Below are positions 1 to 63,474 of a stretch of DNA of 64,000 bases, piece after piece. The notes beneath the pieces were generated by a model. The model saw only the letters and a program-made list of their open reading frames with translations. It searched no databases and had not been told where the DNA came from. The translations under genes and the position numbers were made by a program. The DNA lies in the NCBI GenBank assembly GCA_951406725.2, contig OX597826.1, forward strand, positions 23,746,001-23,810,000. Direction: 5' to 3'. Each line of letters starts with the position of its first letter. Position 1 is the stretch's first letter. The DNA is from Octopus vulgaris (lineage: Eukaryota).

Positions 1-405
1 TTATATATATATTTAACACGAGACGTGAGACTGAAATTTATCTTAGACATCAATAAGTAAGAGGAACTATAGAATTATATATATATTTAACACGAAACGT
101 GAGGCTGAAATTTATCTGAGACATCGATAATTGAGAGGAACTATAGAATTATATATATATTTAACACGAGACGTGAGGCTGGAATTTATCTGAGACATCG
201 ATAATTGAGAGGAACTATAGAATTATATGTATATTTAACACGAGACGTGAGACTGAAATTTATCTGAGACATCGATAATTGAGAGGAACTATAGAATTAT
301 ATGTATATTTAACACGAGACGTGAGGCTGGAATTTATCTGAGACATCGATAATTGAGAGGAACTATAGAATTATATATATATAACACGAGACGTGAGGCT
401 GAAAT
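1..405. repeat. 74-bp tandem minisatellite (~5.5 copies; may extend past the left edge)
   Basis: The unit ttatatatatatttaacacgagacgtgaggctgaaatttatctgagacatcgataattgagaggaactatagaa restarts at 1, 75, 149, 223, 297 and 371. A partial copy lies at ~805-843. Confidence 0.93.
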
Positions 406-1636: not shown

Positions 1637-4373
1637 ATCGTGAAGTATATTTACCACCTAAATGTGGCTAACCCATAAGGAGTGATGCTAATGTAGCTTG
1701 TAGCCCTAGGAAGACATCTCCAGCTGGCTATCAACGCACTTTCTGTGCCCTATCAGTATTTACAAAGGGAGTCATCATTCCCATCACCAGCCTGACGTGG
1801 TACACACGGACCTGGGTTTCTGCGTGTTGACCCATCATCAGCGTGTGACAGCCACCGGTTGGCGATGTGAAGTAGTTCCCAAATGCAAATATATATATAT
1901 ATACTTTTTCCAGTGACGAAAAGTCACTGATCTCGAAAAAGTGGAAATACTGATAGGGCACAGTGTTGATAGCCAGCTGGAGGAGATATCTTCCTGGGGC
2001 TACAAGTTAAGTTAAGTTAAGTTAATTTTTTGGCTCAAAAAGCAAAAAGCAAGGCCATGTAGGGGGACATGGAGTTATGTACAGGGAGGGTGTTCATGCA
2101 AAGAATTCAGGCCATTTCTGGTCATGAGAGACTTTGAACCGAGCAGTCGTCGGCAGCTTCACTATCTCGTCGGGCAGCTTATTCCATGGATCTGCAACCC
2201 GGATGGAGAAAGCCCCTCTCCTTCTATTGAGATGAAATCGTCGCAGATAGAACTTTTTGGAGTGACCCCGCAGCCGACTCTCTGGAGCAGGAGTGAAGAA
2301 CAGCTCTTTCGAGAGGTTACACTTTCCGCTTATGATGTTGTGAGCAAGAATGAGATCACCACGGCGTCGGCGTTTTTCTAGAGAAGAAAGGTCGAGCGTC
2401 TTCAGCCTTTCTTCATAAGACAAATGCTTGAGACCAAGAACCATGCGGGTAGCCAACTTCTGGACTCTTTTGAGATGCTGTATGTCTTTGAGGAGATAAG
2501 GAGAAGAGGTTTGAATCCTGTACTCCAATATGGGTCTCACCAGTGTGAAATAGAGCGGTAGGAATATGGCTGCTGTGAGCATTCCGAATGACCGTCAAAT
2601 CAAAAACAGAACTTCACGTGCTTTTTTGGCTGCATGGATGCACTGGGCCGAAGGCGAAAAGGAAGAATCCACCAAGATACCCAGGTCCTTTACCTGGTCG
2701 GTCCTCTCCAGCAGCAGACGACCCGGCTTGAAATCAAGTTGAGTTGCAGGAGAAGAGCCAACAGGCAGATGACAGTACTTTGACACGTTCAGACACAGGT
2801 CCCATTCGTTAGACCATCTCCAAACTTGGTGGAGGCATCGACGAAGATCATCTATATCACCGCGAGGAGCGACCAGTTTGACATCATCGGCAAATAGAAG
2901 GGTGTGTTGTGTGAGGTCGTCGGGCAAGTCATTTATGAAGACTAAAAACAATAAGGGCCCAAGCACTGAAACTTGAGGCACGCCACTGCTCGCACTGGAG
3001 ACATTGGACAGCGAACCATTAACTTGGACTTGGAAGGAGCGATCTGAGAGGAAGGCACCAACCCATCGTACAACATCCGGATGAAAACAAACAAATGCTT
3101 GAAGCTTGACAAGTAATAGGCGGTGGTTTACCAAGTCAAAAGCTTTGGCAAAGTCCAATAAAACGATGTCAACAGCATCACCATCATCCAGGATACGCGT
3201 CACCAATTCTTCCATTACCAGTAAGTTGGTCGAGCATGATCTCTTCGGCATGAAGCCGTGTTGGGAATCAGAGATAGAGGCTATGTTCTGGAGGTGGAGC
3301 AACATACTTCTCTTAAGGATGGTTTCGAATATCTTGCTGATTATTGAAGTAAGGGAAACCGGTCGGTAGTTAAGCGGGTCTTCGCGGCTCCCTTTCTTGA
3401 AAATTGGGCAGATTATCGCTGTTCTCCAGTCTGCAGGTATAACACCCGTCGCCAATGACATATTGAATAGAAGTGCTAAAGGCTCGCAGATGACCGGAGC
3501 CAAAGCTTTGATAACCTGTGGGTGTATGCCGTCAGGGTCGTGACCCTTCTTGACATCGAGGCCTTGAATAACGCGTTCGACTTCGTCCTGAGTGATGACC
3601 AATCTAGGCATTGGAGGTACCGATCTATCAAATGGAGGGGATTCACGACCATCATCTTGTTTGAAAATTGTTGGAAAAGCCTCAGCAAATAACTGACTTT
3701 GCTGATAAGGGTCCTCAATTGATACGCCTGTTGAGTCTACCAACGTTGCAATTTGGTTGTTCAAGTGGTAATTCCATTGGACATGGGCGAAGAAGGTTTT
3801 TAATTGCAACTGGCGTTTGCCGCGATTCTGTATTCATTTCTGAAGCGTTCTTCCTTTTCAATTTTCATGGCTCGGTCTCGTTGAGTTTTGTACACCTCAA
3901 AAGCTGCAGTCGAATCTAGATTTTTGAATTCAGCCCAAGCAATATCTCTGAGTCGAAGTTCTCGTTTAACCTTCTTTGTCACCCAGGGCTTGTGTTTCTT
4001 CTTCTTGGGAAGCCCAATGGGAACTGCTTGGTCAGTCAACCAGATTACATATGCTTTGCGGGACGACCATAGTTCATCAACTGAGGACATCGTCATCAGG
4101 GATCGCCAGTCCAGAAGCGCGGAAGCCTCGGTTAGAATTTCAAGATTGATTACAGAGAAGACTCTATGTGGCAGCGAAGTAGTTGTGGGCATAGAAAAAG
4201 TTGTGTGCATGTCGAACTTCAGGACCATGTGATCACTCTTGGCAAGAGGGGCGCACACAGATAAGCCTGACACTGATCTTGGATAGCGGGAGAATACCAG
4301 ATCCAGCATAGATGGCTGCTACAGTCAGCCCTTAAGGGTTAGCCACATTTAAGTGGCAAATATAATTCACAAT
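1637..4373. mobile_element. MITE/foldback element with long terminal inverted repeats; right arm split by a LINE
   Basis: The left arm (~1637-1762, gtgaagtatatttaccacctaaatgtggctaaccc...gccctatcagtattt) is the reverse complement of ~1946-2005 joined to 4317-4373. Confidence 0.8.
2004..4316 (-). mobile_element. 5'-truncated, frameshifted CR1/L2-like LINE (APE endonuclease C-terminus + RT)
   Basis: ORF 3800-4309 has DLVFS..SDH. ORF 2595-3809 has YRPVSLTS, QHGF, LDFAKAFD, GVPQ.SVLGP and FADD. ORF 2094-2582 has the CR1-type C-terminus LEKRRRRGDLI...WNKLP. 3' tail is (TTAAC)n at ~2004-2024. Confidence 0.92.
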
Positions 4374-7030: not shown

Positions 7031-7613
7031 CAGAGTCAAAACAGTATATATATATATAAACATAAAATCAATTATGTTTCAATATATTTAATCAGAACTT
7101 CTAGATACTTCCTTAAGACTAATAACCCGAACAGAATTAGGTCAACCTGGATCTCTCCTTCATGTGTTGGTTTGTTTATATCCCCCCTTACCTTAGTGGT
7201 TTGGTAAAAGAATGAGTGTCGCTGTAATGCAAGCAGTGTTCTTCATTTCTAGTTTTCTGCAAAAGACCTGTCTGGCTATGGGGAAATATTACCTTGCTTG
7301 AAGATGGGAAAGGTTTATGCCAGGAAGAGCATCTCACTGTAGGAAATCTGCTTCAATAAGCTCCATCCGACCCATGCAAGCATGGGAAAGTGTACACAAA
7401 AGTAATGATGATGTATACATATCTATCTATCCATCTATCTATCTATGTGTATGTCTGTCTGTCCTGTCCTCTTTTACAGACATTTCACCATTGTGGTTGC
7501 TTAGAATCATACACTTGGTGTTCCAAGGACATTTGGATGCTTAGCTCTTAACACAACAGTAGCAGCCATATGTCTATTTCTACACCAAGATACAATGTAT
7601 ATATGATATATAA

Positions 7614-7700
<87 letters not shown>
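7614..7700. repeat. (TCTG)n(TCTA)n microsatellite
   Basis: Direct reading. Confidence 0.95.
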
Positions 7701-7702
<2 letters not shown>

Positions 7703-9583
7703 CTATACGTATTGACTCTTGAGCCACTACTGCGGAAGCTGGCGACTCTAAGGGGCATCCCGCGAGAATTGGGATGCGGGACGAGCGTGTCTGCATACGC
7801 GGACGACGTCACCGTCATAGTGTCTAGCCACGAGCACATCGAGCTGGTCGGCGAGACACTGAAAAACTACGAAGCGGTGACAGGAGCGAAAATCAACCGG
7901 GAAAAGTCAGTGGGCTTGCGACTAGGCACCTGGAGAAGCAAGCCCATGCCGTCCACCAGCGCCTCCGTCGTGGGACGCTGGACCGACGGCCCGGTTGAGT
8001 TGCTCGGGGTCTGGTTTGGTCCGGACCTCCAAGTGGAGAAGAACTGGAACGAGATAACGAGTAGGGTGGTCACTCTCGCCCGGCAATGGGCCGAGAGGAA
8101 ACTGTCCCATAAAGGTCGAGCGGAGGTGGCGAACACGTACATCGCGTCCGTCATCTACTACCGCCTGACCGTCGTACCTTGTCCCGACCCTACCATCACC
8201 AAACTACAACGCATCCTCTTTCGCTTCTTGTGGAAAGGATGCGTCCCGATGGTCAGGCGATCCATTTGCTGTCAACACCCGTTAAAAGGAGGGCTGGGCA
8301 TGCCGTGGTTGATGATGCGCAGACACGCGCTGAGACTGCGGCATCTCTGGCTCTATGTAGACGACGGTGAACAGGTGTGGTCGCCGTTTGTGAGGCACGC
8401 TTTCCCGCAGCTCGTCTCCATGACCGAACTGCAGTCGTGGATCAAAAAGAGGCCGAGGAAGGGCGAATGGCACCGCGAGTGTCGCGTTGCTCTCAAGCAA
8501 CTCTGCCGTCCTGGGTCGACCTTAAGTGACTTCAACACAACCAAAGCATTCTATAGGGGTTTAGTGGAGGGGAGGTACGACGACGAGCTCGGGGCGAACC
8601 TGGACGTCGACGAGGAGTACCTGACCCGCCTGTTCAGGACGACTTTCGGGCCAGGGCCCATGGACAACTTCCAGAGATCCTGGCCTGGCAGTGCTACCGA
8701 GAAGCGCTACCCGTTCGGGATAAGCTCTACAGACACGGCTCGAGAAACACGGGGCCGACCTGCCCGAGATGCGGTCAGAGCGACGAAACCGTTCTGCACG
8801 CACTCGTTCAGTGTCCAACAATTTCCGACCTGTGGGCTTATGTCGAACAACTGCTGTCACGTGTGGGACGAGTCGGTTTATCAGCTGAGTCTATCATCAA
8901 TATTGTCACGCCTCCTTCCTTCAAACGGGAAGGAAGAGCTATTTTCATCATCCTTGTGGCTATGGCGAAAGAATGTATCTGGTGGACACGTCTGAAAGGA
9001 TTGGAGACAAACACTTTCCTCTCTGGTCAATCTCTCATCAACTTCTTCAAGTACCACTTGAAAAGGAAAGTGAGAGTAGAGAGGCAAGTTTTGTCTAGCG
9101 AATGTTTTAAAAAAAGATGGGTGAATGTAGCAAGAATGGCACGTATGAATGACGAAGCCACCTTGAGCATAGTTCTATGAACCCAGAAATCGAAAACAGA
9201 GAGTTGCTTATTTGCAAAAAAAAAAAAAAAAGAAATATAAAATGTGACATCATTGACCGAGGTTACCGTGGTCTTTTCCGTAGGCTTTTCTTTGCACGGG
9301 TAAACCTCACCTGTCCTCCCCTTTACACTTCATATTGACATTTCTGTGATAACGATCCCTATTGATCAATTTTTTATTTTTTTTTTTTTTTTTTTTTCCT
9401 CTCCCCCTTTTTTTTAAACCCCCCTTTTTTTTGTCCTCTTTCTCTCCTTTTACGATCCCTTTTGATCGAAACTCCCCCTTCCTTTTTTTTTTTTTTTTTT
9501 TTTTTTTTAAACCTTCAAAAGAAAAGCTCTACCTTGTAATTTGTTCTATCTGTGTGCAGCCCTGTGTGGCTAATAAAGAAACA

Positions 9584-14023: not shown

Positions 14024-14622
14024 TCACATGTTTATACACAAACATATATTCATACACACACACACACTTATATACAATCATTATTATCATCATTTTAATG
14101 CCCATCATTGATGCTAGCATGGGTTGGAAGAATTGATAAAACTCGACAAATCGAAGGAGGAAACATGCTCCGTGTTAATACGCATGTCATCATCATCATT
14201 TAATGGTATCTGGCACGACTGAGATTTTGCTTGGTTTGGTGGGTCTTCTCAAGCACAACATAATGCCAAAGACCTTGGTCATTACCTCCGTGAGGCCCAA
14301 CACTTGAAAGGGACACGAACACTTTGCCTCCAGGAGGCCCACCACTCAAAAGGAACTCAGCCACCTCACCCACTCAGAATATATGACCTTCATACATGTA
14401 TATATTTTTGTTTTATTATATTTTACTTTTGCCTGTATTCCAGCATGGCCACATCTTGCAGGCTGAAACTGGTAAAGGAGTGCTCATGCAAATTTGTTTA
14501 TTTATGAGTTTACGTACAGAAAATCATACATATATGTATATACGAGTTGTTTTGTGTATGTAGAATTATGTATGTATATGATGTGCATATAAAATATGTA
14601 TGTATATATATATATATATATA

Positions 14623-18245
<3,623 letters not shown>

Positions 18246-18275
18246 GCGAGAAAGAAGCAACAAGAATGGATAGGT

Positions 18276-18366
18276 TTTTAGTACAATCGTTTCATACAAG
18301 GACAGGCTTTATTAAAAGTTGCAAAGATTGCAGCATATAAACGTGTCCCGTACTCATCAGCTAAAA
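18276..18366 (-). ncRNA. Type I hammerhead ribozyme (inverted pLTR copy)
   Basis: Reverse complement of 20941-21031. Confidence 0.85.
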
Positions 18367-18528
18367 TACATGTGAGTTCTCTAGACATACTAGTGGTTGA
18401 GGCTATACTCATGAAGTAATGTAGATAATTAAGTAACATAAACAGATTTCCAAAGTTCATTAGCTAAGATTAATAATAACAACATTAAACTAGCCAGGAA
18501 AGATAGAAATAAAAATAATAATATCAAC

Positions 18529-19431
18529 ATGAATACCAATAGCAATTATAATAATACTACCAACAATAAGAACAGCAATAGTAACTATCAAAACATGGGT
18601 GAAATTAGTAACCACAGAATGACTAATAACATTAACATTAATAGTAATAATAGCAATACCGATATTAATAGAAGTAATAATGTTAATAATCGAAATAATA
18701 GAAATAAGGCTAATGGAGAAAATAAGGAGAATGAAAATATCAGTGATATCTATAACAACAATATGCAGTCGGATAAAAAGACTAACAATAATAGTAACAT
18801 TACCAATAATATAAGAAATCATGGTAGGACTTTAGACCTTAAAGATGAAACAGAAGGATCAATAAATAATAGCAATACTTTAGATATCAGCACCAACTAT
18901 AGAAATATTAATAACAATAAGGACAATTATACTCATGATAATCAAAATAATAGGAACCTAAAACATCTACCCAAGAATAATCCAAAACCTGAAGTTGTTC
19001 CTCCTGTGTGTAAGTGTAGAATAAAATCAAAATGCCCGGCACCTGGTCTATGCGGGGAAAATAATGTAATCTATAAATGTACCATATCCACGGAGAATAA
19101 CAAATATTTTTACATTGGATGTACAATTAATTTTCTAGCCAGAGTTAGAAATCACATCTCGTCTTTTAAATTACGTCATAAAGCTGGTACCACCACACTT
19201 TCAAACAAAATCTGGGAACTCAAAAATAATAATAATAATTATAACCTTAATTGGGAAATAGTTAGGAGAGCAATTCCGTATAAAAATAGCAGGGTTGGTT
19301 GCCAACTATGCTCCATGGAGACGTATGAAATTCTAAAGCAGAGAAAACATAGAAACTTATTGAATAACCATATCGAACTAGGTCAAGTTTGTGTCCACGC
19401 TAAATTGAAGACTTTAAAATATTTTAAATGA
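18529..19431 (+). CDS. PLE C-terminal region: Asn-rich linker + Cys motif + GIY-YIG endonuclease (remnant of an RT-EN ORF)
   Basis: CKCRIKSKCPAPGLC...NVIYKCTIS...YFYIGCT..F.AR..NH..SF...LSNKIWELK...WEIV...CQLCSMET. The frame is open upstream to ~18460 (LAKINNNNIKL, comparable to LSQIISSHNNKL in PLE 1). Confidence 0.85.
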   Translation: MNTNSNYNNTTNNKNSNSNYQNMGEISNHRMTNNININSNNSNTDINRSNNVNNRNNRNKANGENKENENISDIYNNNMQSDKKTNNNSNITNNIRNHGRTLDLKDETEGSINNSNTLDISTNYRNINNNKDNYTHDNQNNRNLKHLPKNNPKPEVVPPVCKCRIKSKCPAPGLCGENNVIYKCTISTENNKYFYIGCTINFLARVRNHISSFKLRHKAGTTTLSNKIWELKNNNNNYNLNWEIVRRAIPYKNSRVGCQLCSMETYEILKQRKHRNLLNNHIELGQVCVHAKLKTLKYFK

Positions 19432-20513
19432 TTAGAATATTCGTAACTAGATAGATAGATAGATATAACTTGATTTTTACTAGTATAGCACTGCTTTAAG
19501 TAGATAACTAAGAGTTCTCACACTACAGTTATCTTTTTCCTTATATCTGCATCAGTTTTTTGAGAACAGGGAAATGAATAGTACTTATACGCTGCTTAAT
19601 TGAGGCTTCATTTAATTTCAAACTCATAATATTTAATTTCAAACTCATAATTTTAAATCTTAATTTTAAATCTTAATTTTAATTTTTAATTTTAATTCTT
19701 AACTTAATCTAATTTAAGTAGCATAACTTTAATAAAATAAAATGAGTTACTAAAGCCCCATAATTCTATTTCAAAATTAAATAAATAAGGCTACTCCCTC
19801 GGTAATAATATGATTATCTTCATTATGATAGGCAATTCCCTAACACCTTGTAAATGATCTTCTAAGATTTGACTTGTAGTCCGTCAATGTATGAATAATA
19901 ACGGCAACTCCTTAAGACAGTAAAATGAATAAATTAAATAAATAAATTTTAATGACTTTTTGATAAGATTATACTTAGATTTTCCTAATGTATTTTCTTT
20001 TGATTTTAGCCTTTGACCTCTAAACCACTGACCGTGTTATCTCTTTAGATTCTCTTTAAATTCATAGCTGCTTTCAACAGCAATAAATTAGCTGTTTTAC
20101 TGGTCAAAGAATAATATTCTCCTCTAGTTCCTAGATGCCTGTAAATTAAAACCAGACTTGCCGTCTACTAATTCTTCTGTATAACTAGAACCCTCTTTTT
20201 CTTTTTTTTCTTTTTCTTTTTTCCCTTCTTTCCCTATTTCTTTCTCTTTTCTCTTTTTTCTTTTTCTTCTTCTTATTCTCTTTTTCTTATTCTCTTTTTC
20301 TTTTTTTCTTTTTCCTTTTCTCTTCTCTTTTAGTCCCCCCCCTTTGCTCCCTCCTCCTTTATTTTCTCTCTTTTCTTCTCTTTCCTTCCCTTTTCTGTTC
20401 TTTGCCTCTCTTGAAAGCCCTTCAGCCTTTAAAAGTTAAATAGCTACAGTCTCTTGTAAATAGCAGTAATGTGATTAATGTGGCAAATACCTAATCATAT
20501 AGCAAGAATTGAT

Positions 20514-20795
20514 ACCTACCTCATTGTGTTCAACCATTGATAAATTTATCGCCTGTGAATATGAAATTCCTCTTCATTTCTCTGGAAATTTACATCTACA
20601 CCATTGGAAATTGTGCATCTATACAAAGGATTAATTCACCCTCTCTGTAATGCTAATAAGCAGGAATTGAGACCCACCTCGTTGTGATTAGCAATGGATA
20701 AATTTGTCATCTGTGAGTATGTAATCCCTCCTCATATCTCTGGAAATTCATATGCACACTATGGATTAAGTCACCTTCTCTGTGATGCTACTAAA
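20514..20795. repeat. Diverged tandem duplication (~158-bp offset) in the PLE 3' UTR
   Basis: acctacctcattgtg...ctctggaaatttacat at ~20514 matches acccacctcgttgtg...ctctggaaattcatat at ~20672. Confidence 0.75.
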
Positions 20796-20940
20796 ACTTT
20801 TTTTAAATTCTGTGATAAGACTGTACATCATCTTTAAAGAACTTTAATGAACTTTCGAAATCTGTTTATGTTACTTAATTATCTACATTACTTCATGAGT
20901 ATAGCCTCAACCACTAGTATGTCTAGAGAACTCACATGTA

Positions 20941-21031
20941 TTTTAGCTGATGAGTACGGGACACGTTTATATGCTGCAATCTTTGCAACTTTTAATAAAG
21001 CCTGTCCTTGTATGAAACGATTGTACTAAAA
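20941..21031 (+). ncRNA. Type I hammerhead ribozyme in the PLE 3' pLTR
   Basis: UUUUAG-CUGAUGA-GUACGGGACA...UGUCCUUGUAU-GAAA-CGAUUG-UA-CUAAAA. Stem I is 6 bp, stem III is short, and the triplet is GUA. Confidence 0.88.
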
Positions 21032-21532
21032 ACCTATCCATTCTTGTTGCTTCTTTCTCGCTTATAATCACCCCACATTACTGTATTGTTAAAACCGTAT
21101 AGTTTTTTTTGGTGCATCTAAGTTAGGTACCATATTCAAGTAAATTCATTTAAATTAACTTGAATCTTTATTGCTTTTTATATATATATATAAATATTAT
21201 ATTATATATATGTATTATATATATATATTATATATATATATATATAAATATTATATTATATATATATATTATATATATATATATATAATATATATATATA
21301 CTATATATATTTTTTTTTTACTTGTTTCAGTCATTTGACTGCGGCCATGCTGGAGCACCGCCTTTTAGAGTGGTGAAATAGTACAGCAGGGATCACCACC
21401 TCCTGCCGGAGCCTCGTGGAACTTTTAGGTGTTTTCGCTCAATAAACACACACAACGCCCGGTCTGGGAATCGAAACCGCGATCCTCCGACCGCAAGTCC
21501 GCTGCCCTAACCACTAGGCCATTGCGCCTCCA

Positions 21533-22432
<900 letters not shown>

Positions 22433-22434
22433 AT

Positions 22435-22677
22435 ATTGATAAAACGGTGAGATAACAAAAGAAAGAAAGAGACCTCAATATTATGTAAATAGAGAAATTT
22501 ATCTATACAATATGTTACATTACTCGGTAGTCAAGATAAAACTCTGAGTTTCAGATGCCGAAGTGGAAATCCACAACACCATCTCTTCGAAGAGATGGTG
22601 TTGTGGCTTTCCACTTCGGCATCTGAAACTCAGAGTTTTATCTTGACTACCGAGTAATGTAACATATTGTATAGATA
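22435..22677. mobile_element. Palindromic pLTR-like fragment carrying the 3' part of a hammerhead
   Basis: Near-perfect palindrome 22501-22676 centred on ctcttcgaagag. Each arm reads GAAGAGAUG...CAUCU-GAAA-CUCAGAG-UU-UUAUC outward from the centre. A third copy lies at 23218-23306. Confidence 0.7.
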
Positions 22678-22690
22678 TATATTATATATA

Positions 22691-22931
<241 letters not shown>

Positions 22932-23042
22932 TAGCTAACAGTCGTAATGGCTTTCATGGGAAACATGTATTTTCGTGGTTGAAACCTTTTGGATTAACTG
23001 GTGCTAGAGTGATCAATATAGTGACCACTCTCTTATATTTAT

Positions 23043-25030: not shown

Positions 25031-25432
25031 TGTTATATTTCGGAATGGTCATATTGCCAGTTTAGCCAATAAAAACACACGCACTTATATATTTGGTGTT
25101 ATTTTGCTTCAGTGATATTTATTTTTTACATTAATCTTAATCTTATTTCGGCCAAAGTTCTTTCGTCACACTCCTGTGACCGCATCAGTGGTCCTTTGTT
25201 TTCTTCTCACTTACTTGTGTCTCTCCTTACTAACCGTCAGCCATTTTGTATTTCTATTGTATGTCTTCATTTGCGCATGCTTATATCTCTATGTGCGTCT
25301 ATGTTTATTTAGTGTGTGGGGGGGGATGCCTGTAATATTTGTATCTTCTGGTTATATACATTCTTGTAATTTGTATTTTGTTTTTGTTGTTGTTGCTTTT
25401 GTTCTAATTTTATTCATGTGTTTACATCCACC

Positions 25433-27379: not shown

Positions 27380-29586
27380 TCTCTATTTATAAAACTGAAA
27401 TGCGAAAAGTTTGTTTGTTTGTCTGGAACGGTTTAAAGGCCAGTAGATCCCGTCGGATTGACTCCAAAATTTATAGGGACATGTAAAATAAGGTGAGGAT
27501 GCCAGTGGGCTAGGTTAGAAATCCCTATCTTAAAAGGTCTCATTGCTAGGGCCAAAAACCCACTTTGACAAGTCGACTCTCATTCTTTTATGTATCTGTC
27601 TTCCTCCGTCACTCTATTTCCTCCCCCCATCACTTTCTATATATAACGTCGATAAAGGCGGCTAACTCCCCTTCACTTTCTCTTTATAACTTCGTCAAAC
27701 GGCGTTCTATATCTCCCCCTCCTCCTCCCCGCCTTCCACAATGCTTTCACACTCTCTCTCTCTCTCTACGTCTGTCTGCATTCATAGAGAGAATTATCAT
27801 CGCCACATCCACCACACAATCATGAGAACAAATATTATGAATCAGATATTTATTGGGTTCATTTATATATGTGTGTGTGTGTTCTATATATAAATATGTA
27901 TATATAATGCATATATACAAAGTGTATATATCTGTATTTATGTATATTAAACTTTTTAATACTTTTTGATAGTTATATATATTTTTTTTTAAATTATAAA
28001 TATAAATTAATAATTTTTATTTTGAATTTAAATAATTTCAATTTTTCAATTTTATATTTTATATATTTTGTATATTATATTTTTATTTTTATGTTCTTGT
28101 TTTTTGTTTTTCACTGTTTGATTTGCCTATTAGTGGTTTTATCTCTAATTTAATTTATACATATATATATATATAATTTGTATACATTTGTATATATAAT
28201 GCGTGCACACACACACATATATATATATACATATATATGTAAACAAAGTCAAATGCGATACAATAAAATTAATTATTATCGCTGGTGTTCTAGGACACGC
28301 CATATATTATTCATATATAAGTACATTAAAAGGCGAAGTGTGTACTAGATACTCAAAAGCTGGATAAATTTAATGAGATGAAAATTAAAAACTTTTACAA
28401 ACTTAGTTCTTCTTAGACTGCAGTTTCGCCTATTTCAGCAATAAAAATAATATTTATTTACTCAGATATATATAATGTGTGCATTATGTGGTCGGTTGAG
28501 CTGAAAATATGCACACCTATGTTAAAAGTGCTGGCAAGTTTGCATGACAACTATTTTTTTCCTCAAATGAAAGGCATGACCTCTAGGACAAAATTCCTCA
28601 TCTTATAAAATGTGGCCCCAGTAGACCCAAATGAAATCGGGTTATATTAACCAAAATGTGAAAAGGGGTCTAAATGGGGCTGGAAGGATTAAAATTTAAA
28701 GGAGCGGGTGTTTAGGAATTCTCTGTTACATCAAGCTAAAAAATTTGCGCAAGCCTTTTAATCGTCAATGTGTTGCCGTCCATGATGAAGATGTTTTGAA
28801 TGCTTGCCATGGTGAGTCTACTGTCATGAGAAAGAATCACTTCAAAACTTGGTGTTTAGGAATTTTCTTTTACATCAAGTTCAAAATTTTACGCCAGCCG
28901 TTAAACTGTGAATACGTTGCTGTCCGTCGTTAAGAAATGCCAGCCATGGTGACTCTACTATCCTCAGATTCTATCCCTTCAAACTTTGGTTTCCAATATT
29001 TTATTATTTTTATTCAGCTCGCAAGTTCATCTGTCCCTTTTAAATGTTAGTGTTTTGCTGTCTGCCTTGAAGCAGACCTTTCCGTTGCCACTGCCTGATA
29101 TTTATGATTGATCTTTCTAAATATTTTATTTCTCAACTTACTCAAGATCTTTTGTTGTTTATAAATGGGAGATAGATAGATAAAGATAGAGAGTAAGAGA
29201 AAGCGAGGGAGAGTCCGAGAGAAAAGAAAAGTAAGAGAGTGGGAAAGTGAGAGAGAAAGGAGAGAGAAACAAAGAGGGAGAATCATCATCATCGTTTAAC
29301 GTCCGTTTTCCGTGCTAGCACGGGTTGGATAGTTTGACCGGGGTTTGGGAAGCCAGGAGGCTGCACCAGGCTCCAGTTTGATCTGGCAGTGTTTCTACAG
29401 GTGGATGCCCTTCCTAACGCCAACCACTCTGTGAGTGTAGTGGGTGCCAGGGGGGCTGGCAGCGGCCACGATCGGTTGGTGCTTTTTACGTGCCACCGGC
29501 ACAGAAGCCAGTCAAGGCGGCGCTGCAATTGGCCACGTTCGGATGGTGCTTTTTACGTGCTGAAAGAGCGGGTCACCTTAAGCTAG
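27380..29586 (+). mobile_element. Probable non-autonomous Helitron
   Basis: The 5' end reads A|TCTCTATTTATAAAA and the 3' end GCGGGTCACCTTAAGCTAG|T (TC...CTAG in an AT site). There is an internal ~144-bp tandem duplication (28707/28851). The subterminal hairpin is disrupted by an insertion at ~29282-29560. Confidence 0.6.
29282..29560 (-). mobile_element. SINE/LINE-tail family D ending (GAT)n
   Basis: Minus-strand tail ...caacccgtgctagcacggaaaacggacgttaaacgatgatgat. Relatives lie at ~32207-32425, 38000-38265, 40250-40570 and 48295-48950. Confidence 0.7.
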
Positions 29587-29758
29587 TATATATATATATA
29601 TATACTTACATATATACATACATATATATATATATATCAACAATCAAGGAACGGCCATAATAGGCCATTCACCCACTAGAAATAACAGCCAAAGCTTCAA
29701 CCGCAAATAAAAGTCAATTCTGTAAACCAGGAGAAAATTTAAAAACATTTACCCTGTA

Positions 29759-29865
29759 ATTTCTTATACGATATACCGTTTCATCTGCTGATTAATGGTA
29801 AACTAACCTGATTAAATTAAATCAAGCCAATCTTCCACAGGCCCTCAGATTCATCAGTAAGAAAT
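29759..29865 (-). ncRNA. Type I hammerhead ribozyme (array copy 1)
   Basis: Reverse complement of 31133-31239. Confidence 0.9.
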
Positions 29866-30250
29866 AGCCCAAGTCGGAGCAGATATTTTCACGAGGCATT
29901 TCCGACCTTGCCAAGTTTATATCTGACCTAAAATTTTCAAATCGTCGCACTCGCGCCAAATTTATCGGCAGCAAATAAATATAAGCCGTCGATTCCATTA
30001 CGGAATTAACCAGAAAATTCATAATTAATCAATATAGGGTGGCAAAAAAAATTTTGTAGAATTCTTTTGCCACCAGCGGCCTAGTAGGAAAAAATTAAAT
30101 AGTCATAGACCATTTTTAAGTTTAACATCAACAATCAAGGAACGGCCATAATAGGCCATTCACCCACTAGAAATAACAGCCAAAGCTTCAACCGCAAATA
30201 AAAGTCAATTCTGTAAACCAGGAGAAAATTTAAAAAACATTTACCCTGTA

Positions 30251-30357
30251 ATTTCTTATACGATATACCGTTTCATCTGCTGATTAATGGTAAACTAACC
30301 TGATTAAATTAAATCAAGCCAATCTTCCACAGGCCCTCAGATTCATCAGTAAGAAAT
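30251..30357 (-). ncRNA. Type I hammerhead ribozyme (array copy 2)
   Basis: Reverse complement of 31133-31239. Confidence 0.9.
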
Positions 30358-30637
30358 AGCCCAAGTCGGAGCAGATATTTTCACGAGGCATTTCCGACCT
30401 TGCCAAGTTTATATCTGACCTAAAATTTTCAAATCGTCGCACTCGTAATGGAATCGACGGCTTATATTTATTGCTGCCGATAAATCGCAGCAAATAAATA
30501 TAAGCCGTCGATTCCATTACGGAATTTAACCAGAAAATTCATAATTTCAATATAGGTCAGATATAAACTTGGCAAGCGGCTAGTCGGAAATAGTCGTAGA
30601 CATTTTAAGTTTAAATATCTGCTCACCGACTTGGGCT

Positions 30638-30745
30638 ATTTCTTACTGATGAATCTGAGGGCTCTGTGGAAGATTGGCTTGATTTAATTTAATCAGGTTA
30701 GTTTACCATTAATCAGCAGATGAAACGGTATATCGTATAAGAAAT
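30638..30745 (+). ncRNA. Type I hammerhead ribozyme (array copy 3)
   Basis: AUUUCUUA-CUGAUGA-AUCUG...CAGAU-GAAA-CGGUAUAUCG-UA-UAAGAAAU. Confidence 0.9.
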
Positions 30746-31132
30746 TACAGGGTAAATGTTTTTTAAATTTTCTCCTGGTTTACAGAATTGACTTTTATTT
30801 GCGGTTGAAGCTTTGGCTGTTATTTCTAGTGGGTGAATGGCCTATTATGGCCGTTCCTTGATTGTTGATGTTAAACTTAAAAATGGTCTATGACTATTTA
30901 ATTTTTTCCTACTAGGCCGCTGGTGGCAAAAGAATTCTACAAAATTTTTTTTTTGCCACCCTATATTGATTAATTATGAATTTTCTGGTTAATTCCGTAA
31001 TGGAATCGACGGCTTATATTTATTTGCTGCCGATAAATTTGGCGCGAGTGCGACGATTTGAAAATTTTAGGTCAGATATAAACTTGGCAAGGTCGGAAAT
31101 GCCTCGTGAAAATATCTGCTCCGACTTGGGCT

Positions 31133-31239
31133 ATTTCTTACTGATGAATCTGAGGGCCTGTGGAAGATTGGCTTGATTTAATTTAATCAGGTTAGTTTAC
31201 CATTAATCAGCAGATGAAACGGTATATCGTATAAGAAAT
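31133..31239 (+). ncRNA. Type I hammerhead ribozyme (array copy 4)
   Basis: Stem I AUUUCUUA/UAAGAAAU (8 bp), core CUGAUGA, stem II AUCUG/CAGAU with a long extension, GAAA, near-palindromic stem III ACGGUAUAUCGU, and GUA at 31229-31231. Confidence 0.92.
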
Positions 31240-31892
31240 TACAGGGTAAATGTTTTTTAAATTTTCTCCTGGTTTACAGAATTGACTTTTATTTGCGGTT
31301 GAAGCTTTGGCTGTTATTTCTAGTGGGTGAATGGCCTATTATGGCCGTTCCTTGATTGTTGATGTTAAACTTAAAAATGGTCTATGACTATTTAATTTTT
31401 TCCTACTAGGCCGCTGGTGGCAAAAGAATTCTACAAAATTTTTTTTGCCACCCTATATTGATTAAATATATATATATATATATATATGGCTAAACTGGCA
31501 AAATGACCATTCCTAAATACAACAATATATATATATATATTGGGCCTACAGTCATGAGGTTCTGAGTTCAATTCCTAGACTGGGCTGTGTTGTGTTGAGC
31601 CAGACACTTTATTTCACATTGCTCCAGTTCCCTCAGCTGTAGAAATGAGATGTGGCAGCATTAGTGTCAAGCTGTATCAAGGGCATATTCAAATGCATGG
31701 GCAACTATTGTTCATCCACAAACAAACTTGCCTGGACTTGTGCCTTGGAGGGAAACTTTGTAAGTGCAATCCCATGGTCATTTGTCACCAAATGTGGCCA
31801 TCACTCTTTATATATAGACACACACACACAAGTACAAAACAGAGTGGAAAAAGTAATACTTGAATACCAAAGGTAGAGTAATATGCTTTTTT

Positions 31893-32040
31893 TTAAAGCT
31901 GCAAAATTATCACAAAACTATTACTTGGAGTTTCACATTCCTGTTCATCAGACAATTGCGAAGTTTTCATCACAGCTGTCCAACAGACAGGAACATGAAA
32001 CTTTGAGTAACAGTTTCTGTGATAATTTTGCAGCTTCAAA
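31893..32040. repeat. Old inverted repeat of a minimal-hammerhead pLTR-like unit
   Basis: aagctgcaaaattatcacaaaactattac... pairs with ...gtaacagtttctgtgataattttgcagctt. Confidence 0.8.
31916..31957 (-). ncRNA. Minimal type I hammerhead ribozyme (42 nt)
   Basis: Minus strand: AAUUGU-CUGAUGA-ACA(GGAA)UGU-GAAA-CUCCAAG-UA-AUAGUU. The plus-strand partner at 31974-32015 has a destroyed core (CCAACAG). Confidence 0.8.
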
Positions 32041-32161
32041 AAAAAAAGGTTTATATATATATAACGGGAAGGTTTACGAAAATAAACAAAAGACAAAGAC
32101 AGGTGGAGTACAAACAAACAAATGTATTAGTATGGCGCTCAGGAATAGAAATAGAACAAGT

Positions 32162-32209
<48 letters not shown>

Positions 32210-33184
32210 TCACCATCATCATCGTTTAACATTCGTTTTCCAGGCTAGCATGGGTTGGACAGTTCGACCGAGATCTGGGAAACCAGGAAGCTGTACCAGG
32301 CTCCAGTCTGATCTGGCAGTGTTTCTACAGCTGGATGCTCTTCCTAATGCCAACCACTCCGTGAGTGTAGTAGGTGCTTTTTATGTGCCACCGGCACAGA
32401 AGCCAGTCAAGGCAGTGCTGGCATGGGTATCACAACAACAATTTATATATATATATGTATGTGTATATCTATCTATCTATCTATATATATATATATACAC
32501 ACACACACACATATATACAGAGAGAGGGGAGAGGGTATGTGTATGTAGGAGTGTGTATATGTATGTGAATATCAATATTTCACTTTTGTCACTGCTTGGC
32601 TGGAGCAGTACTGGTGTTGAAATTACTTGTCAACATTTTGACAGATTGCCCTTGACTTCCAAAGATTTGAGGAATGAAGAAATCCTTTACTTTTAAAAAC
32701 AGGTAGAAGTTGATGAGAGGAAGGGCATCCAGCTGTAAAATCCTGCTTCACATAACTATTTGCCAGACTCATGCTGGCACTGAAAACAGTTGATGTCTTT
32801 TAGTTTTTGTTTCAGTCATAGCACTGGGGCTACAATGGGCCACCATCTTGAAGGGTTTAGTTGAACAAATCAACCAGAAACTGAATTACGTGAATGTAAA
32901 CAGACCAACACTGGTTATCAAGCGGGTGGGAGTGGTGTGGGGGCAAACAAATGCAACGACACACATTTACATATATATATTTCTTTATTGCCTACAGGGG
33001 TCTAAACATAGAGGGGACAAACAAGGACAGACAAAGGGATTAAATTGATTACATTGACCCTAGGAAGAAAGGCAAAGGCGACCTCGGCAGAATTTGAACT
33101 CAGAACATAAAGGCAGATGAAATACCGTTAAGCATTTCGCCTGGCGTGCTAACGATTCTGCCAGCTCGCCACCCTCTATATATA

Positions 33185-33550: not shown

Positions 33551-35160
33551 TGTATCAAGTGCCTGTATCATGTGACTTTGTGGTTAGGGTGTTGTACTTG
33601 AACTGAGTGATGTGTTGTGTTCTTGAGGAAAATACATCATTTCCTGTTGCTCCAGTTCATTCATTTGGCAAAAATGTCTAACCCTGTGACAGACCAGTGT
33701 CGCATCCAGCGGGGAATATGTCACAGAAACTGAGAAACTAGCCTTATGAGCCTGTGTGACACAGGAAGGAGCTATCATTTGACATCCATTATCCATGCTG
33801 ACCAGAGCTAGCAAGCTGTGGAGCTGCACCAGACTCCAATCTGATTTGGCATGGTTTCTACAGCTGGATACCCTTCCTAATGCCTACCACTTTACGGTGT
33901 GTGCTTGGTGCTTTTATGTGGCACCGCACAGGCACTTTCATTGCATGGGTGCTTTCACATGGCACTGAACTGGTACTTTTACATGCTACTGAACAGGCGT
34001 TTTTATGTGGCACTGCCACAAGTACTTTGCACTACCAGAAGGATTGATCTGAGCACTTCTGCTGTGGGGTACAAGTGTTCTCGAGCACAGCAAGGTGCCA
34101 AATATCTCGGTCCTTTGTCATCTCACCTGAAAAGTTCAGTGACCTGAGGTCATTACTTCAGCACAGAAATATGTGTAGTGTTGATTCCCCACAGACTAAT
34201 AACAGGTAAGTTATGTTTTTTCAACTAATTTTATTGTATTTTATAGTAGGTTTTTTAACTGCTTATATTATTTTATTGGATATAACTTTTTGTGTGTATG
34301 CCATACAATAAGGTTATCCTGAAATAGGAGTTGCAGTTCTATTGGTAAAATCCCAAATTTGTAATAATATACATATATATATATATGTATACACACACAC
34401 ACTCACAAGTTCCCTCATAGATTCTGTCCACCAAATTTGCTCACAAAGCTTTGCTTGACCAAGACCTGTGGTAAAATCCACTTGCCACATAGTTGGACTG
34501 AAACCAAAACCACATGGTTGCAAAACAAGCTTCTGAACCACATTGCCACACTTGTATCTGTTAAACAAAGAAACAAATGGCACATCAGGTACTTTTGCTC
34601 TATATTCAACTCCTACAGGTCTTCCTGACTTTGCCCTTCACTGCTCTGGTATCAGTGATATACTGGTGAGGGGGTGTTAATCTTGACAGTTATGTTTCCC
34701 ATTTATAAAAAAATTTCTACAAAACACTGAAAGCTCACATCTCAATCAACTTGGATGGATTTTAGACCAATTGTGGTCCTTTATAATAAATATAGGTTAG
34801 AGAATGTAGTCTTGTGAGGTGAGAGAGAGAAAGAGAGAGAGAAGTCAAATTTATTGCAAATGTCAGGAATATCATGGTTTCATTTATACAATCATTATTC
34901 TCTTCTTTTTCTTCATTTCTTCTTTTTTTATATTTTTACCTCCCGAAATACCAACCAAACTACAGAGAAAAAGAAAAATGAGATTCTTAGATAGCAAACA
35001 AAAACATAAAATAAAACAGAAGCAATAACAAAACAAAATGTGATGTGAAACAGTTAAGAAACAGCAAAAATATATCAACATTATTTACTTCTCAAATTTT
35101 TTTTTTATATATATGTTGCTGATAAAATGTGTATTTTTAATAGTAATGTACACCAGAAAA

Positions 35161-54506: not shown

Positions 54507-58320
<3,814 letters not shown>

Positions 58321-61300
58321 AAATCCTTAAATCCTTAAAAATGTTTTAGCCCGAAGGCCGCGGCCATGCTGGGGCACCACCGCTGAATGAGCTACACTAG
58401 TTTGTGAATCCACCTCTGATACGTGGCACTTGATCAACAAGGGAGTTCGATGCTGCTGCCCGCATCCGTGTCTCCTGTCGTGAGGTAGGTTCATCTGGGA
58501 CTCCCAACAAGAAGAGATCCAGTTTAGTTTTAAAGAAACCCACATCCACACCATGTAAGTCTCTCAGGCATTTAGGGAGGATGTTAAAGAGCTGTGGTCC
58601 TCTGAAACCCAAGCTGTTGCAGTATCTGGACCTGTATTTTGATGGTGATGTTGGAATCCTTGGCACCACGCAGCGGCGCCCCGTTCTGCGGTTGGAGTAA
58701 CTTTGAATGCCAAAGTTTGGGACAAGACCCTCCAGGATTTTCCAGATGTATATCACTGCATATCTCTCCCGCCTCCGCTCCAGGGAGAAGAGGTTTAATA
58801 CCTTCAGTCTTTCCCAGTAGCTGACATTTTGCATTGAGACGATTTTCTTTGTGTAGCTTCTCTGAGTTGCTTCGAGTTCTGCTGTTTGTTTTATATTGTG
58901 TGGTGACCAAAGTTGGGAGCAGTAGTCCAAGCGGCTGAGGACAAATGTTTTCCATAGGACCATCAGTGTCTCCTTCTCTCTTGTTCTGAAAGTTCGGAGA
59001 ATCCATCCAGCTAGCCGTCTGCATTTTATCACCAGATTAGCAATATGCATTTGGAAAGATGCATCATTGCTCATGTCAATGCCCAGGTCACGCACTGATT
59101 TTGACTCAGGGATTGCAATTCTTCCTGGGCCAGTGTATCCAGTCTTCACGTCATTTACCTTTGTGTGCCAGTAGCGCAGGGCCTGGAACTTACCTGCATT
59201 AAACTGCATGTTGTTGTCCTCAGCCCACCTGTATATTGTGTCCAGCTCATGTTGCAGATGCGCAATATTTTCAGGGTTTTGTATTGCGTGGGAGACTTTT
59301 GTGTCATCTGCATAGCTAGCAAGGGTGGTCATCGTAGCAACTGAAGGCATGTCTGAAAGGGCCACTATGAACATCAGTGGCCCCAAGACAGTGCCCTGTG
59401 GGACACCGCTTGTTATTTGCGTTTCCCTGGAGGTGGCTCCATTGCTCACAACTGCCTGTTTTCTGTCTTTTAGGAAGTTGTGCAGCCACTCTCCAAGTTT
59501 CCCGCCTATGCCGAGACCACGCAGTTTGTGACAGATCATACCATGGTCGACTTTATCAAAGGCTTTTGCAAAGTCAAGATATATTACATCCACATTTGAG
59601 CCATTTAGTAGCTGTTTCAACACCCAGTCATAGTGTTGCAGGAGCTGTGTTAGGCAGCCTCTACCTGGTCGAAATCCATGCTGGGTGTCAGACAGTAAGT
59701 CATTTTCTTCAAGGAACATGATTAGTTTCTTACGGACTATTCGTTCCATGACTTTGCTGATGTGTGAGGTCAGAGAGATAGGCCTATAATTTTTAGCATC
59801 TGCTCTGCTACCTCCCTTATGGATAGGGCATATTACCCCCTCTTTCAGTTTGACTGGGAGCTTACCACTTGCAAGAAAGCTCTGAAAAAGAAGCTGTAGC
59901 GGTTTTGCAAGGGCTCGTTTGCACGATTTGAGAAGGATCGCTGGGAATCCATCAGGTCCAGCAGCTGAGTTTGTGTCAATCTCATCAATGGCTAGTGTGA
60001 TATCATCTTCTTCGATGTTGATGTACTCAATTTTTGTCTCTTTGGCCGCTGGTAAAGTGGCAAAGAATTCTTCTGGGTTGTTTACTTGCCTGTGTCCTAG
60101 AGGTGTAGTGAACACACTTTGGAACTGTTCGTTCAGTATTTCACTTATCCTCGTGGGATTTCCTGTGAGAGAGCCATCTTTTGGAAGAGAGGTCCTATTC
60201 TCTGGTGCACTGTGGCTGTCTCTTTGGCAAACTTAAAGAAAGCTTTAGGGTTTGATTTTATATTTTCTATTACCCAAGCTTCTTTATCTGCTCTCTCCTT
60301 TTCATGGGACTGATGTAGACTTTTCTCAGTTTCCATTAGCATTCTTTCGAGCCGAGACTTCTCACCACTTTTGGTGTGCTTGCTCAGGCGGTTTGCAATC
60401 CTTGTCCGTCGTCTCATAAGAATCCTCCTTTCTCTAGGGATCCTGTTTTTGTTCTTGTGTGTGCTGGCCCTGCACATTGGGACATATTTGTCACATATGG
60501 CTTGTATTATGGACATGAAGTGTTTGTGTTTCATGTTTATGTCCGGTGTGGAGAGACATTCAGGCCAATCCTGTTTGAGGATCTCTTTCTCAATCGACTT
60601 CCAGTTGGCTTTATGAAAGTTTAAGTTGGAGAGATGGTGGGTGCTTCGTATAGGCTGTGTGTCTGCAGGGGCTTTTGCTCCATACATAGACAGCTCTATT
60701 ATGTTGTGATCCGAGATCATTGTCGGCATCACATTAACATTATGGATAATATCCATATTGTTTGTGAAGCAGAGATCCAGTATGTTATCTGCCCTTGTTG
60801 GTTGCAGAACTATTTGCTCCATGAAAGAGGTATTTGTGAGATGGAGCAGGGACTCCACCTGTGCCTGCTGATGGTGTGTCATCCCTGGGAGCATCTGCCC
60901 CCAGGCCATTCCACATTGGGGAGGTTAAAGTCACCCATGAAGAATACACTGTTGTGCTGTTCAAGGTTGGTGAAGACTTCTCCTATTTTTGTTAGGCAGT
61001 CTTCAAACATGCCTGAGTGTTTTGGGGCGTCTGGTGGGCGATATGTAGTGCATATGACGATATTCAGTTGTCTTATGTGTACAATTTGAGTTTCACATAC
61101 TGAGTTTGAATATGACAGCAGGACCTGGGGCGTGAGGTCATCTCGGATGTACATTGCAACTCCACCGTGGCTCCTCCCTTTTCTATCTGTGCGTATGACT
61201 GCATATTGCGGCATGTGTATTTCTGCATCACCTATATCGGGTTCAAGATGCGTTTCTGTGAGTGCCATGCATATAGCTTGATTGCATGTCACAAGGTCTC

Positions 61301-61370
61301 TCAGGAATGAAATTTTCTTTTTACAGTTTCCGCGCAGCAGCCCTCCTACATTCAGTAGAAATATTTTTGT
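58321..61370 (-). mobile_element. CR1/L2-like LINE with near-complete ORF2 (APE endonuclease + RT) broken by two frameshifts; no ORF1 visible
   Basis: 60879-61370 reads [35 protein letters not shown]. 60145-60909 reads PTR..NILDL..SDH. 58397-60115 is the RT ([37 protein letters not shown]). The 3' tail is (TAAGGATT)2. Confidence 0.93.
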
Positions 61371-61389
61371 GGTGTGTGTGTGGTGTTGG

Positions 61390-63471
<2,082 letters not shown>

Positions 63472-63474
<3 letters not shown>

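Follow-up and report, generated by a model that had tools for sequence, protein, structure and literature searches.

What kind of element lies between two (TA)n tracts at positions 29636 to 31465 of the 64-kb window of Octopus vulgaris DNA analysed here, and by what route might a non-coding sequence have come to stand there in two opposed orientations? The first-pass annotation had taken it for a palindromic array of hammerhead ribozyme units of the retrozyme type, mobilised by a Penelope-like element (PLE). The element measures 1,830 bp and is flanked at both ends by (TA)n, as that annotation had observed: a left (TA)n-rich target microsatellite at 29587 to 29635, evident in the sequence and as a TRF row at 29587-29637, and a right (TA)n target microsatellite at 31466 to 31487. 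Next to the left tract is an inverted arm of 810 bp (29636 to 30445, minus strand in the sense of its hammerheads), which an exact parse resolves into 1.65 head-to-tail units running from unit position 308 through one full turn to unit 132, the end that adjoins the left (TA)n. Next to the right tract is a direct arm of 840 bp (30626 to 31465, plus strand), parsed into 1.70 head-to-tail units that run from unit 384 through one full turn to unit 236, the end that adjoins the right (TA)n. The 3' ends of both arms point outward onto (TA)n, and the direct arm bears at its 3' end a one-ended tail of 102 bp (31364 to 31465, plus strand, unit 133-236) that the inverted arm lacks at its own 3' end. With the 494-nt monomer between predicted cuts on the plus strand (30738 to 31231, 36% G+C) as the reference unit, the inverted and the direct arm each show 0 substitutions and 3 single-base indels. 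The repeat periods, 491 and 492 in the left arm and 494 in the right, agree with the unit of about 491 bp described earlier. The two copies per strand of that description hold for the hammerheads, of which there are two on each strand, but not for the units, since the arms comprise only 1.65 and 1.70 of them. In the same way the 1.8-kb palindrome is real in its inverted arms but imperfect, with one arm ending at unit 132 and the other at unit 236 and a patchwork in the centre. This patchwork (30446 to 30625), parsed and aligned to both candidate templates, consists of pieces of 9-40 nt in which both strands of the unit are mixed, in the order unit 261-301 (+), 293-223 (-) and 335-354 (+), then 355-384 (+) interleaved with 222-134 (-), and may be a junction scar, an error of assembly consensus, or both. 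The longest word common to both flanks is the TA run itself, which would hide a target duplication.

The element codes for nothing recognisable, as had been claimed. Its longest frame from stop to stop is 74 aa, the longest ATG frame of the circularised unit is 66 aa, and with no ORF for an RT and GIY-YIG endonuclease it is not an autonomous PLE. There is no tRNA gene in the unit and no second occurrence of the unit elsewhere in the window, and the TRF listing does not include the repeat of about 494 bp. A MITE or other DNA transposon with long terminal inverted repeats was considered and rejected: the arms are tandem, their ends fall at different unit positions, and ribozymes lie inside them.

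All four passes through the unit carry a full type I hammerhead motif, with two successive hammerheads per arm. On the minus strand a descriptor scan with shuffle control places them at 29759 to 29865 and 30251 to 30357, with predicted cuts after 29767 and 30259, and on the plus strand the scan and folding place them at 30638 to 30745 and 31133 to 31239, with predicted cuts after 30737 and 31231, the two positions given in the first-pass annotation. The predicted monomers from cut to cut are 492 nt on the minus strand and 494 nt on the plus strand. In each motif stem I has 8 bp and stem II 5 bp, the core sequences are CUGAUGA and GAAA, stem III is a near-palindrome of 12 nt, and the cleavage site is GUA. 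The type I descriptor matches eight times in the 64-kb window, four of them in this element, and dinucleotide shuffles (n = 100) yield a mean of 0.04 loose matches and not one case in the 100 with these stem lengths. The earlier characterisation of the hammerhead as canonical is sound for stem I, the core, the GUA site and stem III, but stem II departs from it, beginning with an A-U and not a G-C pair and ending in a 58-nt insert for which a long hairpin is predicted (z -3.3 to -3.6), and the Rfam comparison proposed as a check on Hammerhead_1 does not detect the motif, with no match at gathering score and no hammerhead among 23 matches at E <= 10. Rfam miRNA matches in the region were dismissed as generic hairpins. 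An 18-letter hammerhead motif scanned against metagenomes gave 17 loci, 13 of them with a BLAST row and none of these above 22 nt, all of which were taken as chance.

Folding predictions bear on the form in which such a ribozyme might act. The minimum-energy fold of the hammerhead monomer leaves stem III open and is not the active one, the active fold costing +1.9 kcal/mol; the dimer is predicted at -72.6 kcal/mol, against 2 x -31.5 (-63.0) kcal/mol for two monomers, and has the full active geometry as its best fold. The dimer is the better vehicle for the active geometry because the 12-nt stem III pairs with itself, at 12 of 12 positions, a result matched by 2% of 2,000 shuffled 12-mers. Stem III is thus likely, on these models, to point to cleavage as a dimer, the mode described for animal type I hammerheads through a palindromic helix III (PMC4209133, PMC7229834), and we judge it reasonably probable that the hammerhead is active in some form. 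As a circle, the 494-nt unit is predicted to fold at -130.4 kcal/mol (z -3.9 against 60 shuffles), with 62% of positions paired.

The unit is a many-copy family. Among 24 listed public sequencing runs, 20, spanning 10 studies, hold the unit or part of it and 19 hold at least half of its words, with three organism labels among these fuller 19. Family counts were obtained by comparing the unit region 30410-31112 with the contigs of four of the 24 runs, two of them DNA-like (X1 and X2) and two classed as RNA by guess (X6 and X8), X20 (RNA on record, share 0.06) having been left out. Matching contigs number 4,761 in X1, 14,386 in X2, 61 in X6 and 89 in X8, and their identities to the unit in X1 and X2 are spread over 90-100%. 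The whole unit is covered in all four runs, including X6 and X8, in which copies within host transcripts would look alike. The head-to-tail joint is present in three (X1, X2 and X6), the share of contigs that continue into unlike sequence is 0 in X1 and in X2, and all 12 loose ends listed for these two runs are unit variants. Given this combination of full coverage, head-to-tail joints, the absence of continuation into unlike sequence and the nature of the listed loose ends, the unit behaves as a closed non-coding repeat, unlike a terminal piece of some longer coding element, with a rare partner possible. The situation that the first-pass annotation had named as contrary to its proposal, in which the unit would always be the 3' pLTR of an autonomous PLE, does not appear among the loose ends listed. 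In X6 and X8 the unit gives way to (TA)n at 237-240, which matches the 3' end found at 31465, and a 3' end at unit 132 was seen at this locus only. The contigs of X6 and X8 that cross the cut site could come equally well from a circle, from an uncleaved transcript, from an antisense one or from DNA.

Variation within the family is informative about both the ribozyme and the age of the insertion. In stem III the double change 30730 A>G and 30731 T>C occurs at matching depth in three of the four runs (X1, X2 and X8, not X6), and the predicted dimer helix scores -17.5 with the double change, -10.6 and -7.1 with the single changes and -13.6 with the window sequence, a pattern that suggests selection on the ribozyme; the two changes may have arisen only once and then been passed on to many copies. 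Two other changes, 30738 T>C (28-63% in three runs) and 30721 T>C (21% in X2), break a core-adjacent pair, with no partner change among the 40 of 47 variant rows listed, and unless such a change exists they would argue against uniform selection on the ribozyme. Variants are absent from the 12 core positions, though not significantly so (P 0.36), and the stem II pair 30657-30717 varies on both sides in the family, not necessarily in the same copies. Nine of the 40 listed variant rows are confined to RNA-like runs, and six of these nine are A>G or T>C as against 14 of the 31 elsewhere, an excess that is not significant (Fisher p 0.23) and is at most a lead. In the stem II extension, 30711 A>G is found in one and seven contigs of X6 and X8, respectively, and in neither DNA run, a weak lead for RNA editing. 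At three of the 40 listed variant rows the letter in the window is the minority letter in both DNA runs, and it is shared by both arms; together with 0 substitutions over 1,650 bp, these shared minority letters point to one template and one recent event, which argues against slow local expansion.

The manner of insertion closely recalls that of PLEs, which enter microsatellites with a 5'-truncated copy inverted at their 5' end and a one-ended tail of 30-40 bp (PMC8557442). The footprint here shows the same kind of inverted, truncated copy at the 5' end and a one-ended tail, with (TA)n on both sides. The protein of the anole PLE PAc cleaves AT-rich DNA on both strands in vitro and extends both, and its RT begins at two internal positions, one at each boundary of the tail (PMC11167929). 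At the octopus locus the 3' ends of the direct and inverted arms lie 236 and 132 nt past the ribozyme cut, and for the stretch between these two ends a closed folded domain is predicted (300 shuffles, z -3.1); by analogy with PAc, we infer that the tail spans two reverse-transcription start sites. The earlier proposal of a retrozyme-type, PLE-mobilised element is upheld by the abundance of the family, its circular continuity and this footprint, and we have little hesitation in regarding the sequence as a non-coding, PLE-mobilised hammerhead repeat.

PLE copies within the same window are instructive in this respect. One, at 18241-21179, has a 222-bp inverted 3' copy, a one-ended tail of about 113 bp and (TA)n flanks, and its hammerhead also has a long stem II. 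The frame at 18442-19431 resembles GIY-YIG proteins (feature score 0.96), with a CxxC visible ahead of the conserved E, and contains the CxCX5C and CxH motifs that mark the (TA)n-targeting Hydra clade (PMC8557442); Pfam, applied to three PLE-like frames, returned a weak GIY-YIG match (E 0.031) in one. A further PLE copy with the same inverted layout lies at 31886-32045, and with these two copies the window has two more inverted hammerhead pairs besides the present element. The unit gave no significant match to the two PLE remnants of the window (best E 0.035), and no helper with sequence matching the unit was found within the 64 kb. Because it shares no significant sequence with the unit, the copy at 18241-21179 shows the kind of helper that may be involved and not the helper itself.

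The explanation that we favour, and consider fairly likely as a whole, is that a hammerhead retrozyme was inserted here in trans in one PLE event, likely from a circular unit RNA, although on whether a circle was the template for reverse transcription our judgement is evenly divided. A tandem source locus would be transcribed, as the presence of the family in RNA-like runs suggests in general and, by extension, for any single locus. Successive hammerheads, probably paired as dimers by way of their self-complementary stem III, would cleave the transcript into a predicted 494-nt monomer, which a host ligase would presumably close, as in other animal retrozymes, for which ligation is attributed to RtcB (PMC7229834). 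A PLE endonuclease and RT, likely of the (TA)n-targeting Hydra type, would then nick both (TA)n strands, and each 3' end would prime cDNA at unit 236 or unit 132, which could give rise to the one-ended tail. Each cDNA would pass the cut site twice in the manner of a rolling circle, the continuity across that site being observed and free of a scar, and the two cDNAs would finally be joined head to head by short template switches.

Identity of the units would be explained simply by a circle, and equally by an uncleaved multimer from a homogeneous locus, and it is here that the most serious alternative arises. The element and the PLE insertion would be the same, but the RT would have copied either a multimeric transcript that was never cleaved or a linear monomer, jumping exactly from one end to the other to re-enter it; the hammerhead would be weak, dependent on protein or a relic of a pLTR, and no circle would accumulate. 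Precedent for such a template comes from PAc, for which hammerhead cleavage is dispensable, mutants insert normally, unprocessed RNA is the main substrate and no reads end at the cut (PMC11167929), and from Xenopus, where eight of nine retrozyme dimers did not cleave in vitro and one did (10.64898/2026.07.22.740005); the inactive minimum-energy fold of the monomer described above is also in its favour, as is the fact that a homogeneous tandem source likewise yields identical units. Against this, retrozymes of coral, mussel and axolotl give abundant circles (PMC7229834), the double change in the dimer helix suggests selection on the ribozyme, and some process must have produced the identical tandem units, for which rolling-circle copying is a simple explanation. 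On this balance we think this alternative somewhat unlikely.

Two further explanations concern the locus and the family, respectively. If the family were a genuine tandem retrozyme and the palindrome an artefact of assembly, whether a fold-back chimera or a mis-polished inverted repeat, one would expect a centre such as 30557-30625, which interleaves two paths (unit 335-384 on the plus and 222-134 on the minus strand) like a consensus of conflicting reads, and the window bears other signs of rough assembly in poly(A) runs of 500-650 nt, kilobase TA arrays and a 100-N gap. The stretch 30578-30625 has no depth in any of the four runs, though contigs drop rare variants and the source individual may be absent from them, so that this weighs on neither side. 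The flanks, however, are not mirrored, the arms stop at different unit positions, and the PLE copies at 18241-21179 and 31886-32045 have the same inverted layout. In addition, strand changes inside the unit mark four of the 11 joints listed for X1 and X2, each on a single contig with a depth of 23-149 and 24-29 letters on its shorter side; the family therefore has fold-back junctions independent of this assembly, none of them tied to this locus. An artefact of this kind is improbable and the two-armed layout is probably real, while the interleaving means that the exact centre is not to be trusted, and the chance that the centre letters alone are wrong is about even. A pLTR origin, in which the arms would be inverted and tandem stacks of 5'-truncated 3' ends from an autonomous PLE, has parallels in the opposite-strand hammerhead pairs 100-700 bp apart that are known from truncated PLEs (PMC4209133) and in the Xenopus retrozymes, which match pLTRs in 21 of 24 Repbase-matched cases (10.64898/2026.07.22.740005), and a low-copy partner could sit among the 145 loose ends beyond those listed. 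Such stacking fits poorly with a single fixed period on both strands without a scar, with coverage of every unit position and head-to-tail joints in three runs, with the lack of an ORF remnant, and with loose ends in the DNA runs that, as far as listed, are unit variants; we regard it as very improbable.

The locus itself is unlikely to be a productive source of monomers. The first-pass annotation had envisaged that read-through on either strand would release the unit, but transcription entering from a flank, left or right, has to traverse the antisense arm before the sense one. The whole element is predicted to fold with 92% of it paired and with helices of 305 and 282 bp, and every one of the four hammerheads has 107 of its 107-108 nt paired with the opposite arm on either strand, so that the locus would give long dsRNA, as the same annotation had also anticipated, and not circles. 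On these models two cleavages would be possible only for a transcript that starts in the centre; a bacterial promoter scan of the centre gave chance-level results, the model being a bacterial one and wrong for an animal. As far as folding can indicate, it is likelier that the locus is a silenced product than that it turns out circles.

As judged by its sequence, the locus has the attributes of a metazoan non-LTR retrozyme, with cleavage and circles predicted. Like the retrozymes described in PMC7229834 and 10.64898/2026.07.22.740005 it is a non-coding tandem unit of low G+C content (36%), present in many copies and lacking an LTR, with one type I hammerhead per unit and a highly paired predicted circle. 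Its 494 nt compare with 170-400 nt in the first of these reports and 51-972 bp in the second, and it has in addition the 58-nt stem II extension, the inverted two-armed insertion and the one-ended tail; circles have been demonstrated for those retrozymes, whereas for the octopus unit they are a prediction. An inverted two-armed insertion with a one-ended tail is not described in the portions of the two reports that were consulted, the word 'inverted' being absent from the first and confined to a reference title in the second. With PLE insertions of the Hydra clade (PMC8557442) and PAc (PMC11167929) the element shares partial tandems, an inverted 5'-truncated copy at the 5' end, a one-ended tail, a (TA)n target and a type I hammerhead near the 3' end, but it lacks an RT or endonuclease frame, and its tail of about 102 bp exceeds the 30-40 bp reported (PMC8557442). 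Hydra-clade hammerheads in the File S2 rows of PMC8557442 have a loop 2 of at most 10 nt, as against 58 nt here, the Hydra-1_oBim hammerhead as listed there differs in sequence from the present one, and the Hydra-like PLE of the window has only the (TA)n target and the long stem II in common with the unit. Non-autonomous Chlamys PLEs such as MRC1 are also non-coding passengers with multicopy head-to-tail insertions, but they resemble their autonomous partner at the 3' end, whereas no sequence-similar partner was found in this window, and most Chlamys elements, unlike this unit, are without a canonical hammerhead (PMC8557442).

The class of element, the class of ribozyme and the inverted layout are each already known, and what is added here is a further element of that class, in the form of this non-coding unit. 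Mobilisation of animal retrozymes by PLEs was proposed in PMC7229834 and has been argued from phylogeny and co-occurrence in 10.64898/2026.07.22.740005, which also allows local tandem expansion of a stranded pLTR. Neither this family nor a retrozyme bearing an inverted-plus-tail footprint came up in the literature consulted, with subscription papers mostly outside its scope, and the words 'ribozyme' and 'retrozyme' are absent from the main text of a 2026 octopus repeat annotation (PMC13282606). The hammerhead form found here escapes Rfam and TRF-based searches, and for that reason such families are probably undercounted. One bold extension, which we put forward tentatively and think unlikely to hold in full, is that the locus is a frozen two-primer rolling-circle event, in which both (TA)n strands were primed by a PLE dimer on a single circle of retrozyme RNA, from two fixed internal positions separated by 104 nt, and copying ran for 1.65-1.7 turns in each direction, and that the family exists as an abundant circular RNA of about 494 nt with a dimer-cleaving, long-stem-II hammerhead and an A-to-I edited stem II extension. 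If true, the locus would document directly, at the level of sequence, that PLE machinery moves animal retrozymes in trans and that local tandem expansion is not their sole route, and PLE biochemistry would gain a minimal RNA substrate. Independently of that extension, a single insertion that is young, free of substitutions and marked by a whole PLE footprint on a non-coding unit speaks for mobilisation in trans, and since the insertion names two likely RT start sites, such mobilisation becomes testable with a 494-nt RNA.

The window carries a Penelope-like retrotransposon (PLE) at 18241-21179, 5'-truncated and resembling the (TA)n-targeting Hydra clade of PLEs. It combines a GIY-YIG frame (18442-19431) bearing CxCX5C and CxH motifs with a 1.75-kb 3' region, a hammerhead with a long stem II and a predicted cut after 21025, and, at its 5' end, a 222-bp inverted copy whose minus-strand hammerhead has its predicted cut after 18282. 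The one-ended tail, the extra 3' stretch present on the direct copy and absent from the inverted one, is about 113 bp, and (TA)n lies on the flanks. A second PLE remnant occupies 14620-16400, in which a minus-strand hammerhead (core at 14755, 12-bp stem II, predicted cut after 14682) lies upstream of a GIY-YIG-like frame at 16055-16399 (weak Pfam match, E 0.031); the hammerhead side ends in (TA)n and the frame continues into a TA/poly(A) array. The element, the probable hammerhead retrozyme array at 29636-31465, is followed about 420 bp to its right by a small, older inverted hammerhead pair (31886-32045): the minus strand holds a short Hydra-like hammerhead with its core at 31951, and the plus strand a degraded copy.

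Other repeats include SINE-like copies starting with (CAT)n at 29284-29560, 32214-32427 and 33804-33891 (81-89% alike), one of which stops just left of the element, and a 74-bp-period tandem repeat at 1-405 (5.5 copies, 94% matches). Frames recognised as LINE-type reverse transcriptase/endonuclease by eye, from their translations, lie at 2094-4318 (minus), 7607-9180 (plus) and 58397-62732 (minus); in the last, the endonuclease region is interrupted by a (TA)n-like array of 2 kb. Kilobase-sized TA arrays and poly(A) runs of 520-650 nt (16404-18244, 21534-22933, 54510-58321 and 61396-63472) are possibly artefacts of long-read assembly. There is an N gap near 25430.

Within 30697-30716, in the 58-nt extension capping stem II of the element's hammerhead, three positions (30700, 30705 and 30711) show A>G more often in X8, a public run of RNA-like contigs matching the unit, than in two DNA-like runs, X1 and X2, neither of which has the change at 30711. 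The overall test is not significant, and these changes represent possible A-to-I editing.
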